Below are positions 1 to 9,924 of a stretch of 64,000 nucleotides of DNA, one piece after another. This DNA comes from Staphylococcus phage AH12. Each line of letters begins with the position of its first letter. Positions within the stretch are counted from its first letter, which is position 1. The stretch lies in sequence record OR455461.1. One strand, written 5' to 3'. A model generated the notes under the pieces. That model ran no database searches and had not been told where the DNA came from. It was given only the letters and a program-made list of their open reading frames with translations. Both the position numbers and the translations under genes were made by a program.

Positions 1-412
1 ATTTAATCATATTTACATAATAAGTTTTTCCATCAATATTAAATTCAAGAGTATTATATACTTCCTTATTAGCATACATAGATATTTCAGACATTTGCTC
101 TTCAGAGAATAATGAATCATCAGAACTATAAGCCCATTCCAATAATATTTCACGTTTAACTGCTTCTAAAGAACCAATTTGTCTTTTTTGTTTTGCTAAC
201 CAATCTTCATCTTTACCTAATTCTTTATATGAATATTCTATATACATGAATTCATTATTTGAATTATCTTCCATGTATTTTTCTAATTTAGAAATTCCTT
301 CTTCTTCACCATTAATGAAATAATCATATATTTTTTCATTCCATTGAGCTGCTTCATTCATTTGTTGAAAGAAAAATTGCCCATTGTCTTCATCAAGAGT
401 ACTCAAATTTAT
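1..412 (-). CDS. terL: Large terminase subunit, exon 3 (partial; continues past the window start)
   Basis: Minus-strand frame is open from about 412 to position 1 (TLDEDNGQFFFQQMNEAAQW...). It follows intron core A and continues the T4 gp17-like alignment after the TTTP motif (T4: TTTPNGLNHFYDIW). Confidence 0.5.
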   Translation of the reverse strand, partial: MNLSTLDEDNGQFFFQQMNEAAQWNEKIYDYFINGEEEGISKLEKYMEDNSNNEFMYIEYSYKELGKDEDWLAKQKRQIGSLEAVKREILLEWAYSSDDSLFSEEQMSEISMYANKEVYNTLEFNIDGKTYYVNMIK

Positions 413-570
413 TTATTCTTTATAATTATATAAAGTTTAGACTATATCACAATAATTATAATAATTATTATCCATTATTTAGTCGTTGAACATCATTTAG
501 ATGATGCTGATTAATTTTATAATATTTCAGCAATTAAATAGAAAAGCCCAGTTAATTTTAGGCGTAGTTG
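405..570 (-). ncRNA. Group I intron core A (ORF-less) in terL; boundaries approximate
   Basis: Reverse complement carries P4/P6-like TTAATTGCTGAAAT...AATCAGCATC (502-536), R-like GTTCAACGACTAAAT (477-491) and S-like GATATAGTCT (439-448). Same family as the six other copies in the window. Confidence 0.6.
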
Positions 571-718
571 TAATTAGAAGTCCATAAGGAGTTCCGTTTC
601 TTTTAGCAATTGCAGAAGCTGTGGAGTTAGCTGGACGCATGGCCTCAAACATTGTTTGATTATGTTTAATAAATGCCCACTCATCTAGCCAGAATAATGG
701 CACAGTACCACCTCTCAT
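555..718 (-). CDS. terL: Large terminase subunit, exon 2 (Walker B and TTTP coupling motif); ends approximate
   Basis: ORF 527..718 encodes LFWLDEWAFIK...GLLITTTPK. This matches the T4 gp17 Walker B and C-motif region (MIYIDECAFIP...IIITTTPNG). It lies between intron cores B and A. The in-frame tail INWAFLFNC* probably runs into intron sequence. Confidence 0.55.
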
Positions 719-925
719 TTTTCGTTAACTATATGAATTTCATATAGATCAGACTATATCTTAACAATTTCAATGATATTAATATTTAGTCGTTGAACTA
801 CTATTTTAAGTAGATGCTGATTTATTTAATGATTTTCTCAGCAATTAATTAATTTTATAGCGAGCTAAGGTTATAAATTAATTTTTAAAAATAATTTCCA
901 TATATGCCATGGAATGATTTAACCC
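715..925 (-). ncRNA. Group I intron core B (ORF-less) in terL; boundaries approximate
   Basis: Reverse complement carries TTAATTGCTGAGAAAATCATTAAATAAATCAGCATC (813-848), GTTCAACGACTAAATAT (784-798) and GATATAGTCT (751-760). The upstream exon stops right after KAG*, and the next exon starts at MRGGTVPLFW. Confidence 0.6.
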
Positions 926-2837: not shown

Positions 2838-4433
2838 TTAACGAGCGTATACTGAACCGTTGTTGTTTTTGATTGTAATACGTCCAATGATCGGAACGAA
2901 TGATTCAACTGTATATCTACGAGTCATCATCATGTTAGGAACATTAGGGTTACGAGTATTCAAGTATCCTCCACCATTTACAACATTGAATGTGTAAGGG
3001 TAGAACATGAATGTTTTATAGTTGTCTTGTTGAGGAATTGCAATAATAGTCAATTCACCTTGACGAACTAAGTCAGAACCGATAATACGGTAGTTAGCTG
3101 TACCAGAAGCAGCACCTAATGAATAGTTAATTTTAATTCCATTAGAGTAAGAATCTTCAGTACCACCATTAAATGTCCAAGAAACGTTAGGGATTAAACG
3201 AACGTCAACTGGGTTACCTACGATAACGAATTGTACATCGTAAAGTTTGTAATCATTTTTCATTGATTGAGTAGTATGGTCAATTACTTCACGTAGACCT
3301 TCTAACCAATCTTTAGGGTGAGCACTGTAATCACTATGTGGATAAACATCGAAGCTGAAGTGATATTTAGCGTCAGTTTCTCTGTATTCGTGATCTAAGA
3401 ATTCAATGATATCTAAGTCAACTTTTTGACTAGATAATTGAGACATTGTTTCAGATAAACGAGCAACTCCATCGATATCATAAGTAGCTTTCATATCTTG
3501 AATTACTTCAAGAGGTACTGTAGCCTCGATGTGTTGAGCTGTATCGATAGTGATATCTTTACGATCTAAACCAAGCTCGATGTTAGTAGCTGAAGTATGT
3601 TGTTCAGAAGCTACATAACCTTTAATTTTAATTGCTTCTAATTTACCAGAAGTTGAAGCTAAAGCTAAAGTACCGTTAGAAACGTCAACTTTACCTAATA
3701 CTGTATCAACAGCAACTTCACCGTCACCATTTGTAGGGTATTTAACTTCTGCCATTAGAGAGTCATTTTCCATTTTAATAACTTGAGAACCTAATTCAAC
3801 AAATCCTTTTTCATTTGTACGAACATCAAAAGAATCGCTCCATTTAGCTTCTACAACTTTGAATTTACGGTCAACACGATCAATGCCTTTACGAACTTCT
3901 TTACCTTCTTTTAAGCCATCGAATAAATCGTAAGCTTCAACTTTACCACCAGAAATTGCAACTTCTTCTTTAAGAGGAACTAATCCTACTAAAGTTTCAG
4001 GTGTGTTATTAATTGATTCAGGTAATGCATGTTTGTTTCCATCAGCATCTACAACGTAAGGTGTTAAGATTGGCACTGTGAATTGTGGTTTATTAGCAAC
4101 TTGAGTTGGTAAAGCTTCAGTTAAAGCTAAACGAGCCCAAAGTTTAACTAAGATAGGCATAGATAATGAAGCATAAGGTTGGATAGGCCCCATTGAAGAC
4201 TCTAATAAGATTTCTTCACGAGTGTTATCTAACATACTTTCTAAAGAAAGTTGCTCCTCTTCATCAAAACCTTCTAATAATTGATCTTTATAACTTTCAA
4301 ATACTACGTCATCAGTAGCAATTGAAGCGAAATCATTACCAACTGTACTTAATTTATATTGTTCGTTGATATTTTGTTCGATATCCTCTAAGAGTTTAGA
4401 GAATTCATCTTTAATTCTATTTGCACTCAACAT
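2838..4433 (-). CDS. Major capsid protein, T4 gp23-like
   Basis: 531 aa. The C-terminal region YRIIGSDLVRQGELTIIAIPQQDNYKTFMFYPYTFNV matches T4 gp23 YRVYIDQYAKQDYFTVGYKGPNEMDAGIYYAPYVALT. NPNVPNMMMTRRYTV matches NFQPVMGFKTRYGI. Size is similar to gp23, a terminator follows, and an acidic scaffold-like gene lies upstream. Confidence 0.6.
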   Translation of the reverse strand: MLSANRIKDEFSKLLEDIEQNINEQYKLSTVGNDFASIATDDVVFESYKDQLLEGFDEEEQLSLESMLDNTREEILLESSMGPIQPYASLSMPILVKLWARLALTEALPTQVANKPQFTVPILTPYVVDADGNKHALPESINNTPETLVGLVPLKEEVAISGGKVEAYDLFDGLKEGKEVRKGIDRVDRKFKVVEAKWSDSFDVRTNEKGFVELGSQVIKMENDSLMAEVKYPTNGDGEVAVDTVLGKVDVSNGTLALASTSGKLEAIKIKGYVASEQHTSATNIELGLDRKDITIDTAQHIEATVPLEVIQDMKATYDIDGVARLSETMSQLSSQKVDLDIIEFLDHEYRETDAKYHFSFDVYPHSDYSAHPKDWLEGLREVIDHTTQSMKNDYKLYDVQFVIVGNPVDVRLIPNVSWTFNGGTEDSYSNGIKINYSLGAASGTANYRIIGSDLVRQGELTIIAIPQQDNYKTFMFYPYTFNVVNGGGYLNTRNPNVPNMMMTRRYTVESFVPIIGRITIKNNNGSVYAR

Positions 4434-4617: not shown

Positions 4618-5283
4618 TTACTTTTTACTACGCTTTTTTGTACTTTCTAATTTATTGTATTCTTTTAAATAATTGTCAAATATTTCTTTGTAAGTAGTTT
4701 CAAATTTTTTATATAACTTCTCAGATTTATCTACATCGACAATATTTATAAATTTATTGTTAAATAAATTTATATTATCTTTAAGTTGATCCAGAGATTT
4801 TGTAGTTAATTCAGTTATATCAAACATATCTTTTCTCTCTGAATCTGAAAAATTTTCCATATTTCTGTCATTGATAATGTAGTTAAATTTGTCCATTACA
4901 TCTTTTAATTCAATTAATTTATTAAATATTTGTAATTTTAAAAACTTATCTGAATTACTTTCTTTGGGTTCTTCTGGTGTTTCTTCTGGATTATCTGTAT
5001 CAGTTTCTTCAGATTCAGGTTGTTCAAGATCATTATCTAATCCATCTTCAGTTTCTTCTTGATCTTCCGTAGAATCGTCATTAGAATCATCATTAGAATT
5101 ATCTTCTTCAGTTTCTTCATTATTCTCTTCTTCTGATGAAGTTGATTCAGTATCATCTAATGAATTCTGATCTTGATCATTTTCATCATCTTCAGCTTCA
5201 TTAAGAATATTTTGTTTCATTAATTTATTTATTGATTCAGTGAGTAAATCTCTATTAATATCCATAGTCATTACCACTGTCAT
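4618..5283 (-). CDS. Highly acidic helical protein, candidate scaffold (T4 gp22-like role)
   Basis: 221 aa with a long D/E/S/N-rich acidic tract and coiled-coil-like termini. Sits immediately upstream of the gp23-like gene. The true start may be an internal Met (MTMDIN...). Confidence 0.4.
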   Translation of the reverse strand: MTVVMTMDINRDLLTESINKLMKQNILNEAEDDENDQDQNSLDDTESTSSEEENNEETEEDNSNDDSNDDSTEDQEETEDGLDNDLEQPESEETDTDNPEETPEEPKESNSDKFLKLQIFNKLIELKDVMDKFNYIINDRNMENFSDSERKDMFDITELTTKSLDQLKDNINLFNNKFINIVDVDKSEKLYKKFETTYKEIFDNYLKEYNKLESTKKRSKK

Positions 5284-6289
5284 TTACATCTCCACGAGAG
5301 ATAGCATTTTTAGTTTTATCTATAGTTTTCTTTTGGAAATTTGCTTTTTTCAATTGACCTTCTAAATCTGATTTTAATATTCTTAATTCTTTTCTTTTAT
5401 TTTCATCATCAACTGTTTCTAATTTATCTTCTAATGATTGAATTCTTTCTTCTAGTACAATAATTAATCTATTAAGTTCACTATTTTTAGTACTATTATA
5501 CACAATAGCAACTAATAATCCTAATAATGCAGTTTTAGCTTTACCGATAACGCCAGAACTTACTTTTAATCCAATACAGAAGATTATTGCTGTTAAGATA
5601 GCTCTTACAAAACGAATTCTATTCGCTTTAGCTAATTGTTTATCATCCATATTTTTAGTTGAAGCAGTAGCTTTTTTAACAGAACCGATTAATTTATTTA
5701 AATTCTTTTCAGCAACTTTAGGTTCTTTAGATCGTTCAAAAGATGTATCAATATCATTAAGATAATCCTCATCATCATCTTCATAAGCTTCATTTAAATA
5801 ATTCATACTACCTTCCATTAAGAAATTAATAATTGCTTTTTTCTCTAAATTAGAATTAGAAGGTGTTTCAGCTAAAGCTACAGTTAATTGTTTAAAATTA
5901 AATTCTGCACTTTTATTTGAACTAAAGTCTTCTTTATATAAACTATCTATATAACCATTATTAGGAATACGATTATTAATATAAAGTGTATTATATCTAT
6001 CTTTAAGAGTTTCTATCTTATGAAGAACCATATTTATTGCCATTTCAGATTGTTCATTTTCAATTTCGTATCTTTCTAATGAATCTTTAATACCTACTAA
6101 ATATTTTACAATTTTTCTAATTTGATCATTTGTAAAACTATCAGTATTAGCATACTTCTCAATATCAACTAGATAATCATAAGCTTCATTAGGAAAAGAA
6201 TTTTCATCCGTTTGTTCTTTAATATTAAGTAATGTATCTTTTACTTCTTCAAAACTTTTCAAAGATTTTCCTCCTATCATATATTTCAT
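5255..6289 (-). CDS. Hypothetical protein, coiled-coil with one hydrophobic segment
   Basis: 344-aa ORF with an RBS-like AGGAGGAAA upstream. Hydrophobic stretch ILTAIIFCIGLKV...LLGLLVAIVY. Confidence 0.45.
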   Translation of the reverse strand: MKYMIGGKSLKSFEEVKDTLLNIKEQTDENSFPNEAYDYLVDIEKYANTDSFTNDQIRKIVKYLVGIKDSLERYEIENEQSEMAINMVLHKIETLKDRYNTLYINNRIPNNGYIDSLYKEDFSSNKSAEFNFKQLTVALAETPSNSNLEKKAIINFLMEGSMNYLNEAYEDDDEDYLNDIDTSFERSKEPKVAEKNLNKLIGSVKKATASTKNMDDKQLAKANRIRFVRAILTAIIFCIGLKVSSGVIGKAKTALLGLLVAIVYNSTKNSELNRLIIVLEERIQSLEDKLETVDDENKRKELRILKSDLEGQLKKANFQKKTIDKTKNAISRGDVNDSGNDYGY

Positions 6290-6376
6290 TAATCTAATAA
6301 AAGATTGTTAAATTCAGAAGAATAACATAGAAATATTCTTAATTTACAATCAAAATTTGAAAGGAAGTATAAATAA

Positions 6377-6600
6377 ATGTCTAAAGATATTAAAGCTTAC
6401 ATTATTAATGAATCTAATACAACTTCTCAACCAGAAGTAGTTCAAGATAATAATAAATCAGTTAGATTCATTGCTGAGTTACAAGAAGCTGATAGACAAA
6501 ACCGTAATGGTCGTGTTTATCGTAAAGATGTTATCCAAAGTGGTTTAGATAGTCCAGTAGTACAAGAAAAATTAGCAAGAAGAACTTTTTATGGTGAGTT
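6377..6600 (+). CDS. Prohead core protease (T4 gp21-like), exon 1
   Basis: VRFIAELQEADRQNRNGRVYRKDVIQ...TFYGE aligns with T4 gp21 GIFLQAEVVNRNKRLYPKRILEK...ALGELNHP. The ORF stops right at the intron. Confidence 0.6.
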
Positions 6601-6756
6601 TTAGGTTAAAATGGCTCACGTTAAATTATATTAATTGCTGAAATCTTATTTAAAGTAATCAGCATCAACTTAATACAAGTTGTTCAACGACTAAATATAT
6701 AACCTAGATGATATAGTCTAATCTTTATTAAAATAATAAAGAATAATAATTTGCAG
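6600..6756 (+). ncRNA. Group I intron core C (protease intron 1, ORF-less); boundaries approximate
   Basis: TTAATTGCTGAAATCTTATTTAAAGTAATCAGCATC (6631-6666), a variable hairpin AACTTAATACAAGTT, GTTCAACGACTAAATAT (6682-6697) and GATATAGTCT (6709-6719). Interrupts the protease at the catalytic His codon (exon 2 resumes at GHP). Confidence 0.6.
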
Positions 6757-7013
6757 GTCATCCTTTAAGTGATGAACCTAAACGTCAAATGTATATTGAT
6801 CAACGTAATATTTCTCATATTATCACTAGAACTTGGTGGAATGGTAATAAATTAATGGGAGAAGTAGAAACAGCTCAAACATCAGCTGGTAAGGATATGA
6901 AAGGTTTAATTGGACAAAAATCTGATGTATCTTTCTCAATGCGTGGTTTTAGTAAAATAGAAAGAAAACCTAATGGTGAAGTAGAAGTTACTAAACCTTT
7001 AAGATTAATCTGT
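6757..7013 (+). CDS. Prohead core protease, exon 2
   Basis: Frame is open from 6750 (..GHPLSDEPKRQMYIDQRNISHIITRTWWNGNKLMGEVE...SFSMRGFS). Matches gp21 NHPP...MWWKGNDVYGRARV...GVSSRGLGS, including the catalytic His and Ser regions. Confidence 0.6.
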
Positions 7014-7200
7014 TAAATTATAGCAGCTTTATATAGTGATATATAATGAAAAAGAATATTAATTGCTAAGAAGTTTAATTAAGCCAATTAGCATCAACTT
7101 AATACAAGTTGTTCAACGACTAAATATATTCGCTCTTACTAAGAGTATGATATAGTCTCGTCTATATGGAAACCATATAGCTAAGATGTACGTATGACTG
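7014..7200 (+). ncRNA. Group I intron core D (protease intron 2); boundaries approximate
   Basis: TTAATTGCTAAGAAGTTTAATTAAGCCAATTAGCATC (7059-7095), GTTCAACGACTAAATAT (7111-7127), GATATAGTCT (7149-7158) and a P9-like CTATATGGAAACCATATAG. Confidence 0.55.
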
Positions 7201-7360
7201 GGTAAAAAATTATTGCTTAGTATAAATAATATTAATTGCTGGAAATCTTTATTAAGATAATCAGCATCGGATTAAATTCCGTTCAACGACTAAATATATT
7301 ACCTAATATAAATTAGGAAGATATAGTCTCGTCTATATGAAAATCATATAGTTAAGATAA
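7200..7360 (+). ncRNA. Group I intron core E (protease intron 3); boundaries approximate
   Basis: TTAATTGCTGGAAATCTTTATTAAGATAATCAGCATC (7233-7269), a variable hairpin GGATTAAATTCC, GTTCAACGACTAAATAT (7281-7297) and GATATAGTCT (7320-7329). A micro-exon between cores D and E is possible. Confidence 0.55.
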
Positions 7361-7711
7361 CGTGTAATTCCATCACATCAAGATTCTTATATCCAAAATA
7401 TAATTTCAGAGAATCATAATAATTACAATACTAGTGATTTACAAATGGTTAATGAATCAATTGATATGTTTTCTAACGGTAAAGTTACAGAATTTTCTCC
7501 TAGAGAAGTTTTAACTTATATTAAAGAAAATTCAGATAATATCAAATATATCGCTGAAGATATGGGATTTGATAAAGCTGATGAATCTAATATCATTTAT
7601 GATAAAGGATCTCAAATAGCTTCAATTAAAGAAAGTAATAAAACTATTAAAGTTTTCTTAGAAGAATCTGTTCTTAATGGACTTGATGATTTCTATAGAA
7701 ACTTTAAATAA
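7361..7711 (+). CDS. Prohead core protease, terminal exon
   Basis: Frame is open from 7361 (RVIPSHQDSYIQNII...MVNESIDMF...FYRNFK*). It directly follows intron core E, so the annotated Met at 7445 is probably internal. Confidence 0.5.
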   Translation, partial: RVIPSHQDSYIQNIISENHNNYNTSDLQMVNESIDMFSNGKVTEFSPREVLTYIKENSDNIKYIAEDMGFDKADESNIIYDKGSQIASIKESNKTIKVFLEESVLNGLDDFYRNFK

Positions 7712-7734
7712 TATGTATGGAAGTGATATAGTTT

Positions 7735-8448
7735 ATGATAACTAATACAGAAGTACTTAATTATATAGAACGTGATACAGGATTTCTCTTTAATGAGTTA
7801 GAACTAAATCCTGATGAGATTATTAAAACAGTAGAAAGATTTACAATTCCTACTTTTAGTAAATTCCATCCTAAACAAGAAAGAATAGTAGTTAAACCTG
7901 AAGATAAAGTAGAAGGAACTCAGAATGTTTATTATATTGATTCACCAAACCCGATAGTTAATATTAATAGAGTGATTGGTGCTAATAACAATATTTCTAA
8001 TTTAACTGGTTATGCTGGGAGTATGAGTCCTTATGCAGGTTTTATGATGGGTTCACCTATTGACTCTCAAATGATGGCAGATTTAATGGCAATCAATTTA
8101 AATCCATCTACATTTAGATATCTTCATCCTAATAAAATAGAGATAATGAATGGATCTGTTATGAGTACAACTAATCTATTAATAATTGCAAATACTTATC
8201 ATGATAAACATTTTGGTTCAATACCAAATAATATGCATGATTACTTTTTAGAATTAGCTTCATATGATGTTCAAATGTCATTATACTCTATGAGAGGTAG
8301 ATTTCAAAATTTACAAACTACTTTTGGTGAATTGAATCTAAATATGGATGATTTAAGAGATGCTAGAGAAAAAAGAAGAGAATTAGTTGAAAAAATGGAA
8401 AATAACTCTATTTATAATTCCAATAGAAAAAAATTATTTTTCGGATAA
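7735..8448 (+). CDS. Hypothetical protein, possibly a head-assembly protein
   Basis: 237-aa ORF directly downstream of the protease gene and followed by a terminator. Confidence 0.45.
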   Translation: MITNTEVLNYIERDTGFLFNELELNPDEIIKTVERFTIPTFSKFHPKQERIVVKPEDKVEGTQNVYYIDSPNPIVNINRVIGANNNISNLTGYAGSMSPYAGFMMGSPIDSQMMADLMAINLNPSTFRYLHPNKIEIMNGSVMSTTNLLIIANTYHDKHFGSIPNNMHDYFLELASYDVQMSLYSMRGRFQNLQTTFGELNLNMDDLRDAREKRRELVEKMENNSIYNSNRKKLFFG

Positions 8449-8452
8449 TAAA

Positions 8453-8492
8453 ATCCCAATACCTATTAATTTAGGTATTGGGATATATTTTT
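8453..8492 (+). terminator. Rho-independent terminator
   Basis: Hairpin ATCCCAATACCTATTAATTTAGGTATTGGGAT followed by ATATTTTTA. Confidence 0.55.
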
Positions 8493-8646
8493 AGGATAAG
8501 GGAGTAATGGATATGGATAAAATTAAAGAACTTTGTATAAGTAATTTCATTATAACTATACGCTAATTTATTACTTAAAAAGGAATAAATTATAGAAAAA
8601 TAAATTTCTATAAAAATTTGTTACAATACTAATTTATATCATAAAT

Positions 8647-9231
8647 TTATTTCATTACATTATACGTGTTAAATTGATTTTTTAATCTTTGCTTATCAAA
8701 TTTAATCATTGATTTAGTTTCAAAACGATTTGTATTAAGTTTATCAATATAATCATCTGAATATATTTCATCTATTAATTTTATTTCATGAAAACTAAGT
8801 CTATGTCTTTTAGCTAAAGGAATTAATAATTTATCAGATAAATGTTTAAACATTCTAGTGTCAGGATTATATAAGCTAAAATCATCAGATATAGCTATTA
8901 GAATACTATTTCTATATTTTTGAGGTATGATACCCTTATCTGCTAATTCTTGTAAATAATAACTAGGTTTATAATCTGATAATCCTTCTATAACTACATA
9001 ATCCTTATCTATCAATTCAACAAAATAATGCATAGGTAAAGCTCTAATATTAGCATGTCTAATTAAATAATTCTGAACTTTACCCCAAGAATATTTATAA
9101 GATCCCTTTAATAGATTTCTATCATCAAACTTATTTTCTTTAAGTATTAAATTATTCATATGAGTAATAACTACATGAGTTTGAAATGTATTACTTCTTC
9201 TACGTCTATCTTGTTTTATATCATAATACAA
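8647..9231 (-). CDS. Hypothetical protein
   Basis: 194-aa ORF. Confidence 0.45.
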   Translation of the reverse strand: MYYDIKQDRRRRSNTFQTHVVITHMNNLILKENKFDDRNLLKGSYKYSWGKVQNYLIRHANIRALPMHYFVELIDKDYVVIEGLSDYKPSYYLQELADKGIIPQKYRNSILIAISDDFSLYNPDTRMFKHLSDKLLIPLAKRHRLSFHEIKLIDEIYSDDYIDKLNTNRFETKSMIKFDKQRLKNQFNTYNVMK

Positions 9232-9255
9232 TATTTATTTCACTTCTTTCTAAAA

Positions 9256-9924
9256 TTAGCAATAACTAATTGAATTATATTTTTCTATTAATTTGTTAAA
9301 TGTAATCGGACCAACGTCTCCATCTTGTTTAAGATTATTATCACTCTGAAACTGTAATAAAGAACTTAACATAGTTCTATCAAATACATAGTTTTTACTA
9401 TCGTATTTATTAGCAGAATACCCCAAACCTGTCAGTGCGATACCAACTGTATTAACATCATTACCTTTCATATTATCTTCCCTATACATTAATAATCTGT
9501 AATAGCTTCCTTTAAGATTTCTATTATTTGAAATAGATGGTTCTTCAGGTTTATATTTTCTAGGTAAATGCATATCATAGTAATAAGGAAATTTAGGATT
9601 ACCATTATGGAATTTAAGTATAACTTTATCATAAAGGTTAGGTTTTCTTAAAGGTTTATCTAAATCATTATTCATTAATGGTTGACAAATTAAATAATTA
9701 CCTATGTCTACTTGACTTCTTACATCTAGATCTTCTATATTTATTATATTATTAATATTTAGGTTTCTTTTGATATTTCTTGGGGAATCCTGCAATTCAG
9801 TCATAATAAGTTCATACACAAATAGCTTTACTTCATATGTTTCATCGAAATCTGTATTATCTATAACTACAGCTTCAAAGTCTCGACCAAAATCAAATTC
9901 TTTAAACGATTCTTTATATTGCAT
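9256..9924 (-). CDS. Protein with a C-terminal peptidoglycan-binding domain (candidate lysin or virion-associated wall hydrolase)
   Basis: The C-terminus LQFQSDNNLKQDGDVGPITFNKL fits the PG_binding_1 consensus (DG.fG..T..al..fQ). Confidence 0.5.
   Translation of the reverse strand: MQYKESFKEFDFGRDFEAVVIDNTDFDETYEVKLFVYELIMTELQDSPRNIKRNLNINNIINIEDLDVRSQVDIGNYLICQPLMNNDLDKPLRKPNLYDKVILKFHNGNPKFPYYYDMHLPRKYKPEEPSISNNRNLKGSYYRLLMYREDNMKGNDVNTVGIALTGLGYSANKYDSKNYVFDRTMLSSLLQFQSDNNLKQDGDVGPITFNKLIEKYNSISYC

Follow-up and report, generated by a model that had tools for sequence, protein, structure and literature searches.

In the Staphylococcus phage Twort, orf142 has three introns of group I with an exon of 23 nucleotides (nt) between introns 2 and 3, and exon skipping in vitro is reported for it. 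In fungal mitochondria, the two group IB modules of cob-201/219 are 18 nt apart and cox3-640 is a tandem twintron; known tandem organellar introns also include group II introns separated by 1 nt. A comparable arrangement is predicted here for Staphylococcus phage AH12 (sequence record OR455461.1), of which a stretch of 64,000 nt, referred to as the window, was analyzed. The gene in question occupies positions 6377-7711 on the plus strand and encodes a prohead protease of the T4 gp21 family. It is made up of four exons and three predicted minimal group I introns, the last two of which flank a micro-exon of 11 nt.

As in Twort orf142, several group I introns without an open reading frame (ORF) are found in one small late or structural gene of a Staphylococcus phage, together with a very short exon. 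This analogy had been drawn in an earlier reading of the window by a model that saw only the sequence and its ORFs (the sequence-only reading). It proved apt. Group I introns form a tandem of four in the Twort-like phage CF5, and one of them carries a P7'-P9 segment almost identical to that of intron 2 in AH12 (GATATAGTCTCGTCTATATGGAAACCATATAG). The CF5 introns (972-2104) are consecutive, Rfam-positive with 50-97 bits, spaced roughly 35-60 nt apart and located 3' of the tail sheath gene. The CF5 locus is presumably the homolog of orf142, with one intron more than described for Twort. Compared with the CF5 introns of about 225-280 nt, the AH12 protease introns are shorter (154-179 nt) and score below the Rfam cut-off. 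Further differences from Twort orf142 are the interrupted gene, here a prohead protease, and the length of the middle exon, which is 23 nt in Twort, 11 nt in AH12 and 6 nt in phage LY01 and in the RNA polymerase gene of the window. The phages are also unrelated, AH12 being an AR9/PBS1-like jumbo phage. Intron-disrupted genes of the jumbo phage AR9 were reportedly described by Lavysh et al. in 2016.

Introns of the IA2 subgroup (T4 td and Twort orf142 type) have the extra helices P7.1 and P7.2 between P3' and P8. No P7.1 or P7.2 helix was found in the protease introns, which have one short hairpin (introns 2 and 3) or none (intron 1) between P3' and J8/7, where IA2 introns have P7.1, P7.2 and P8. 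The organellar tandems resemble the AH12 locus in that two independent modules lie a few bases apart and enclose a tiny exon that is easily missed or merged by annotation. In contrast to them, however, the AH12 elements are ORF-less mini-introns of a phage mRNA, whereas the organellar introns are large, often endonuclease-bearing and in some cases spliced as a unit. Composite removal in AH12 would break the reading frame, and the micro-exon encodes a conserved and probably catalytic residue.

The prohead scaffold/protease of the related phages MarsHill, Madawaska and Machias has been listed as intron-disrupted, with varying number and position of exons (Korn et al., bioRxiv 2020). In that work, the exon boundaries were predicted solely by protein alignment to AR9, and the text consulted gives no intron class, RNA structure or splice rules. 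The GenBank records of the three phages carry a joined coding sequence (CDS) for the protease gene. The split state of the gene is already known for this clade. The exact junctions are newly defined here, as are five insertion sites in two hot spots, a multi-copy family of mini-introns and a second tandem pair with a micro-exon of 6 nt.

The locus is best explained as one late S77 protease gene in which three independent group I splicing reactions, with the micro-exon included, would give rise to a protein of 280 amino acids (aa). A probability of about 0.85 is assigned to this reading, which is well supported by sequence, structure and comparison between phages. The exons and introns are as follows; bit scores refer to Rfam and to a covariance model of the intron family that is described below:

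6377-6599, plus strand: exon 1; codons 1-74 and the first base of Ser75, with the 3' end ...GGTGAGT and the final U at the 5' splice site
6600-6753, plus strand: predicted intron 1; 154 nt, Rfam 32.6 bits, own model 141 bits
6754-7013, plus strand: exon 2; opens with CA GGT CAT CCT, that is (S)GHP, and closes with ...ATCTGT
7014-7192, plus strand: predicted intron 2; 179 nt, Rfam 45.5 bits, own model 174.6 bits
7193-7203, plus strand: micro-exon (exon 3); 11 nt, TATGACTGGGT
7204-7362, plus strand: predicted intron 3; 159 nt, Rfam 41.6 bits, own model 141.3 bits
7363-7711, plus strand: exon 4; opens with T GTA ATT CCA TCA CAT, that is (V)VIPSH, and ends with a TAA stop

The unspliced frame from the ATG at 6377 breaks into pieces of 75, 75 and 88+ aa. 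For the junctions, two rules were used: the U of the 5' splice site is paired with a G in P1, and the intron ends with a G. With these rules, the joined exons form an 843-nt CDS that is in frame, has one terminal stop and encodes 280 aa. The protein stretches across the predicted junctions read FYGESGHPLSDEPK and PLRLICYDWVVIPSHQDSYIQ. In phage vB_StaM_SA1 the gene is uninterrupted and likewise 843 nt long, and the spliced CDS can be aligned to it with no gap (91% nucleotide and about 94% amino acid identity). The amino acids across all three junctions (FYGESGHP and LRLICYDWVVIPSH) are the same in SA1, and the micro-exon is in register with SA1 TATGATTGGGT. It encodes Tyr162, Asp163 (codon 7196-7198), Trp164 and two bases of Val165. 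Exon 4 encodes the C-terminal part of the protease domain and a scaffold-like tail.

The sequence-only reading had assigned the first intron to the codon region of the catalytic histidine. This is approximately right: the insertion lies two codons before His77 (aligned with T4 His85), and the codon that is split is that of Ser75 (T|CA), 5 nt 5' of the His77 codon. The other features of the layout suggested there agree with the present reconstruction: exon 2 resumes with (S)GHP, the tandem cores placed at 7014-7360 have the exact limits 7014-7192 and 7204-7362, the proposed micro-exon between them has 11 nt (7193-7203), and introns expected at about 155-190 nt measure 154, 179 and 159 nt. The continuous gp21-like ORF foreseen after splicing is likewise found, at 843 nt, in frame and gap-free relative to SA1.

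In each of the three introns, an in-frame stop comes 0-8 codons after the start of the intron, among them a TAG two codons beyond the site in intron 1 and a TAA as the first codon of intron 2. The G+C content of the introns is only 22-27%, and no sense ORF of at least 25 aa was found inside a loop of any of the three. Without an ORF, they have no mobility gene of their own.

The P1 pairings of introns 1, 2 and 3 are GUGAGU/GCUCAC, CUGU/GCAG and ACUGGGU/GCUUAGU (7 base pairs, bp), with the internal guide sequences GCTCAC at 6614-6619, GCAG at 7023-7026 and GCTTAGT at 7215-7221. The 3' limit of exon 1 was set by its P1 pairing and by comparison with intronless SA1, to which it aligns with no gap. 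All three protease introns and eight related introns have a U.G pair at the 5' splice site, and a G is the last base in all 11 introns examined (G6753, G7192 and G7362 in the protease gene). P10 has a length of 2, 5 and 6 bp in introns 1, 2 and 3, respectively, with P10 guides TTATA (7018-7022) in intron 2 and AATTAT (7208-7213) in intron 3. Nearly the whole micro-exon acts as pairing substrate: the P10 guide of intron 2 pairs with bases 1-5, and the guide of intron 3 pairs with bases 5-11 to give P1. At this insertion site (site 483 of the coding sequence), the P10 guide covaries with the micro-exon, with UUAUA/UAUGA in the window and UUGUA/UACGA in LY01; the guide change tracks a synonymous TAT/TAC difference in the micro-exon.

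Several other solutions for the junctions were rejected. The P1 of intron 1 drawn by cmscan (AACUU/GAGUU) was discarded because GUGAGU/GCUCAC alone places a U.G pair at a frame-restoring junction that agrees with SA1. With a first junction in the style of the GenBank annotation (GAG|GCA, Ala75), position -1 would be a G and the intron would end in U; spliced according to the rules, each of the six close alleles has Ser75. For junction 3, the alternative GTA|GTA gives the same protein, yet it violates the U/G rule. A nested twintron was dismissed because the two cores stand next to each other, with coding sequence in between.

The identification of the three inserts as minimal group I introns, already proposed in the sequence-only reading, is supported by Rfam E-values, the family covariance model, covariation and the junction rules. 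In a scan of a 1.5-kb region, RF00028 (Intron_gpI) matched over its full length (model positions 1-253) at 6578-6739 (32.6 bits, E=4e-6), 7004-7180 (45.5 bits, E=5e-10) and 7194-7351 (41.6 bits, E=8e-9). Whole-window Rfam scans (at the gathering threshold and with E-values up to 0.01) reported no intron, since the scores lie below the gathering score of 50 and filters also act. A direct-repeat analysis detected the strands TATTAATTGCT, AGCATC, GTTCAACGACTAAATATA and GATATAGTCT as common to the three inserts. A covariance model (R1) was built from 10 introns of the protease gene in five phages; it scores the three protease introns at 141-175 bits.

RNAalifold applied to the 10 introns recovered P4, P5, P6, P7 and P9 with 11 compensatory pairs. 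Among 16 family members, 95.7% of the cells are standard pairs; when the partners are slid, the share is 27-44%. Changes on both sides occur in 17 of 36 pairs, and the observed values were reached by none of 500 shuffles. P3 was added by hand as a pseudoknot and is absent from the search model; five of its six pairs covary in the 16 sequences. A first register of P3 (U48-A112) was abandoned because the other register is backed by C-G and G-C covariation. Minimum free energy (MFE) folds of single introns recovered P4/P5, P6, P8 and P9, with z-scores from -2.2 to -4.0 (intron 1, -2.7; intron 2, -2.2; intron 3, -4.0). The MFE fold of intron 2 shows P2, P4/P5, P6, P8 and P9.

The introns differ in their peripheral helices. 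A P2 hairpin is present in intron 2, and introns 1 and 3 are without P2. P8 comprises 5-6 bp in introns 2 and 3; in intron 1, a 5-nt linker (CCTAG) is found instead between P3' and J8/7 (about 6700-6725). Lack of P8 is unusual for a natural group I core. In PB50, the corresponding intron 1 keeps a 7-bp P8, an intron in gyrB of MarsHill (about 1590 in its locus) also lacks P8, and the P8-less intron 1 is kept in at least four phages. Putative degenerate introns of 56-81 nt are reported in the literature; the protease introns are thus small for complete cores but not record-small.

The region is supported by profile and structure comparisons as encoding a prohead serine protease of the T4 gp21 family (Peptidase S77), which is the assignment made in the sequence-only reading, and the motifs named there are visible in the alignments. 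The spliced 280-aa protein matches Pfam Peptidase_S77 (PF03420) above the cut-off (36.3 bits, cut-off 27; E=5.3e-9; residues 37-179), and its database homologs carry PF03420. It also matches PHROG 207, head maturation protease (E=2.7e-25), and the family profile matches the T4 gp21 structure 5JBL (E=3e-9). The motifs NRNgRvY, GEsGHP, WWnGN and FSMRG are shared with T4 gp21. His77 (6759-6761) and Ser136 (6936-6938), both encoded in exon 2, show no variation across the family alignment. Their counterparts in the 5JBL chain are its two Ala substitutions, which correspond to H85 and S140 of T4 gp21; the catalytically dead T4 enzyme is H85A/S140A.

A His-Ser-Asp triad is described for gp21-type relatives, and Asp163 is probably its third member here. 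The YDWV motif occurs family-wide and D163 is nearly invariant; it is aligned to the Asp of T4 'GVDAV', for which no source confirming a role in the triad was found. According to these alignments, intron 1 precedes the catalytic His by two codons, and the probable catalytic Asp is enclosed by introns 2 and 3. A search for a second S77 protease covered ORFs around the head module and found none there.

The protease genes of related phages differ in their introns. The insertion sites are:

Machias: sites 223, 483 and 494, the same as in the window
Madawaska and PB50: sites 223 and 489 (TACGAT|...|TGGGTA)
LY01: sites 223, 483 and 489, with a tandem pair and a 6-nt micro-exon TACGAT
MarsHill and S6: site 219 only, with a 1168-nt intron that contains a LAGLIDADG gene
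SA1, PALS_2 and DC4: no introns in the protease gene
Introns of the site-489 region in the respective loci: LY01 3340-3710, Madawaska 2345-2528, PB50 3403-3582

The five sites form two clusters, 219/223 and 483/489/494, and site 489 lies 6 and 5 nt from sites 483 and 494 of the window. In the LY01 micro-exon TACGAT, all six bases can pair with the upstream P10 guide and four can pair with the guide of the downstream intron. Six reconstructed alleles with 0-3 introns at the five sites all splice to 843 nt with the same FYGESGHP and LICYDWVVIPSH. The ratio of nonsynonymous to synonymous substitution rates (dN/dS) of the spliced alleles relative to the window is 0.04-0.16, which indicates purifying selection on the spliced frame. 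The codon of Ser75 is T|CA in the five alleles with an intron at 219 or 223 and AGT in the intronless SA1 (3926-3931). SA1 thus has no U as needed at the 5' splice site, and its AGT codon may be a sign that the target site was lost or that the gene is immune to insertion.

The intron of MarsHill and S6 shares the core strands TTAATTGCTGG...AATCAGCATC...GTTCAACGAC...GATATGGTC with the window introns and interrupts the same GESGHP motif at a point 4 nt upstream of intron 1. In contrast to the ORF-less introns of the window, it is 1168 nt long and carries a LAGLIDADG endonuclease ORF.

For the preferred reading, the following course of events is proposed. Each intron in the transcript would fold into a P3-P9 core, and its internal guide would pair with the last 4-7 bases of the exon, setting the U.G wobble at the 5' splice site. 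This site would be attacked by exogenous guanosine, and the freed 5' exon would then attack behind the intron-terminal G, aligned through P10. The in-frame stops 0-8 codons into the introns could keep ribosomes off the ribozyme cores. Together, the three reactions would join 6377-6599, 6754-7013, 7193-7203 and 7363-7711 to an 843-nt mRNA. Joint removal of introns 2 and 3 would skip 11 nt and shift the frame, so that each of them would have to leave individually.

A number of points weigh against this reading. All three introns score below the curated Rfam gathering score of 50 bits (32.6-45.5). P7 is invariant and therefore untouched by the covariation test, and alignment A3 was fitted to the model over P4-P9, which favors those helices. 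With P8 absent from intron 1 and P2 from introns 1 and 3, self-splicing without help is not certain, and the introns may require a protein cofactor. The first bases of exon 4 (UGUAAUU, 7363-7369) can form 7 bp with the P10 guide region of intron 2 (AAUUAUA, 7016-7022), which is at least as good as its 5-bp pairing with the micro-exon, and some exon skipping is conceivable; skipping of the 11-nt exon would yield a frameshifted, truncated protein. Finally, we infer splicing, its autocatalysis and its order from sequence, structure and comparison, for AH12 as well as for Machias.

The alternative that survives best retains genuine group I introns that are removed in vivo with the help of a phage or host protein, either a maturase-like factor or an RNA chaperone, rather than autocatalytically. 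It departs from the best explanation in the cofactor requirement only. The small size of the introns (154-179 nt, about 75-120 nt shorter than the Rfam-positive CF5 introns), the loss of P8 in intron 1 and of P2 in introns 1 and 3, and a G+C content of 22-27%, which implies weak helices with MFE z-scores of merely -2.2 to -4.0, would all fit such a dependence. However, J3/4, P4, J6/7, P7, J8/7 and the terminal G are all retained and nearly invariant in 16 copies, and no maturase candidate was identified. Dependence on a cofactor is considered possible but less likely than the preferred reading.

Far less probable is a composite intron, in which introns 2 and 3 leave together with the 11 nt between them as one unit of 349 nt, so that the micro-exon would be no part of the mRNA. 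The Machias GenBank CDS treats the two introns in this way (a three-piece join of 277 aa, reading LRLICR---VIPSH, in which the micro-exon is missing), fungal mitochondrial tandem group I modules that are spliced as a unit are described, and the P10 guide of intron 2 is able to pair with the start of exon 4. Against this, a join of 7013 to 7363 drops 11 coding nt and shifts the frame (223+260+349 = 832 nt), and the annotated Machias junctions violate the rule of a U at -1 and a terminal G; junction 1 is annotated one base off, giving GEAGHP instead of GESGHP. Moreover, YDW(V) is present in all intronless alleles and in distant homologs, with a nearly invariant D163 aligned to the T4 Asp. Introns 2 and 3 each have their own complete core, guide sequence and terminal G, and in Madawaska, PB50 and MarsHill the micro-exon codons are contiguous with exon 2 or exon 4.

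The least probable view takes the inserts for decayed, non-splicing remnants that leave a pseudogene or only a 75-aa exon 1 peptide, with the protease supplied otherwise; sub-threshold Rfam scores, the lost P8 of intron 1 and the annotation of exons as separate small ORFs in PB50, LY01 and S6 are compatible with it, but the core helices are maintained via compensatory changes, the downstream exons are under purifying selection in the spliced frame (dN/dS 0.04-0.16), the catalytic His, Ser and Asp sit in exons 2 and 3, the intron-bearing phages are viable isolates (Machias, with the same three introns, is a propagated isolate) in at least four of which the P8-less intron 1 is kept, and the head-module ORFs examined, as the part of the window that was searched, contain no second S77 protease.

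The mini-introns of the protease gene belong to a family with further members in the window. The R1 model detected four of them, whose junctions were checked against intronless homologs. They are located in the genes for the beta' subunit of the non-virion RNA polymerase and for the large terminase:

55022-54841, minus strand: first intron of the RNA polymerase beta' tandem pair, 182 nt
54840-54835, minus strand: RNA polymerase beta' micro-exon, 6 nt, GCCGAT
54834-54655, minus strand: second intron of the RNA polymerase beta' tandem pair, 180 nt
About 407-918, minus strand: two introns of the same family in the large terminase gene

The spliced beta' reading, ...ILAGMG|AD|YDGDTLNI, equals the uninterrupted gene of PALS_2, with the Ala-Asp of the catalytic DxDGD-type motif coming from the micro-exon. 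The bases CGAU, four of the six in the micro-exon, double as P1 of the downstream intron. In Machias, the beta' gene is annotated just to the first intron. In the terminase gene, one intron follows ...KEQANKAG, with the 5' splice site behind GCGGGT and the guide GCTCGC, and the other follows ...LLITTTP, with the 5' splice site behind ACGCCT and the guide GGGC. The spliced terminase peptide matches the terminases of SA1, DC4 and S6 as a single ungapped piece. Korn et al. were unable to reconstruct the terminase gene.

Complete cores of the family measure 154-184 nt; some members are without P2 and one lineage is without P8. By BLAST, about 34 places with family members were found in LY01, 28 in Machias, 20 in PB50, 12 in Madawaska and 10 in MarsHill; none were detected in S6, PALS_2, DC4 and SA1. 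This sharp difference in copy number between sister phages points to a recent expansion or loss.

Introns with a GUCG guide (shared guide UGUCGC) are inserted behind CGAT in three unrelated genes: the protease gene (site 489), the RNA polymerase gene (second site) and gyrB of MarsHill (about 1472-1628 in its locus). Each of these sites follows the Asp codon of a catalytic or conserved acidic motif (YD|WV, AD|YDGD and DAD|DDG, respectively), and the gyrB 5' exon ends with GCCGAT, the same six bases as the RNA polymerase micro-exon. The same short target in three genes suggests a spread by guide-target pairing. The GUCG-guide introns were also considered as mutual closest relatives, which was rejected given a core identity of 66-75% that does not make them closest kin. 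Transposition of a single lineage is thus unsupported by identity alone, and the family looks mosaic. A simple motif scan of the window for GIY-YIG or LAGLIDADG ORFs found none, which is a weak negative. With less certainty, the introns may have spread by recombination between co-infecting phages, perhaps with homing endonucleases acting in trans, or by reverse splicing into short targets complementary to the guide.

A broader reading would join these observations. The mini-introns would be a non-autonomous, miniaturized group I family, comparable to miniature inverted-repeat transposable elements (MITE-like), that reverse-splices into targets of 4-6 nt complementary to its guides; it would include a GUCG lineage inserted after CGAU at the catalytic Asp codons of three enzymes, tandem introns that share micro-exons and a natural intron without P8. 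As a whole, this reading is speculative and rather improbable, though not as remote as the composite intron. Some Staphylococcus jumbo phages would have the family at roughly 10-34 places per genome that BLAST can detect, and sister phages at none. If it is true, the GUCG lineage has hit three unrelated essential enzymes, at YD|W in the protease, AD|YDGD in RNA polymerase beta' and DAD|DDG in gyrase B, and insertions recurring a few bases apart give rise to tandem ribozymes with shared micro-exons of 6-11 nt. Ordered splicing would then be forced, since the same bases serve as P10 of one intron and P1 of the next, and it could provide quality control or timing in the production of late proteins.

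For annotation, Rfam-based screens miss the whole intron family, so that the intron load of jumbo phages is underestimated and essential genes are mis-called. The public Machias protease is an example, as it lacks three residues with the probable catalytic Asp among them. In the PB50 record (2750-2977 and 3172-3408), protease exon 1 bears the label 'terminase large subunit' and exon 2 the label 'homing endonuclease', and the S6 and LY01 records list protease exons as separate hypothetical proteins; by cluster membership, the separate ORFs of PB50, S6 and LY01 are all protease fragments. If self-splicing, the protease mini-introns would be useful minimal ribozymes, and they raise the question of how two ribozymes use the same few bases as P10 and P1 without exon skipping. 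Five sites in two hot spots beside catalytic residues, together with one short target in three enzymes, form a natural data set on homing, reverse splicing and recombination.

The region around the gene (window 5000-9500) is 97.4% identical to the Staphylococcus jumbo phage Machias and 82-84% identical to Madawaska, MarsHill, S6, PALS_2, DC4, LY01 and SA1. The G+C content of the window is 24.6%, and no tRNA genes were found in it. The protease gene lies inside a head-morphogenesis module, with the following neighbors:

2838-4433, minus strand: major head protein
7735-8448: virion structural protein

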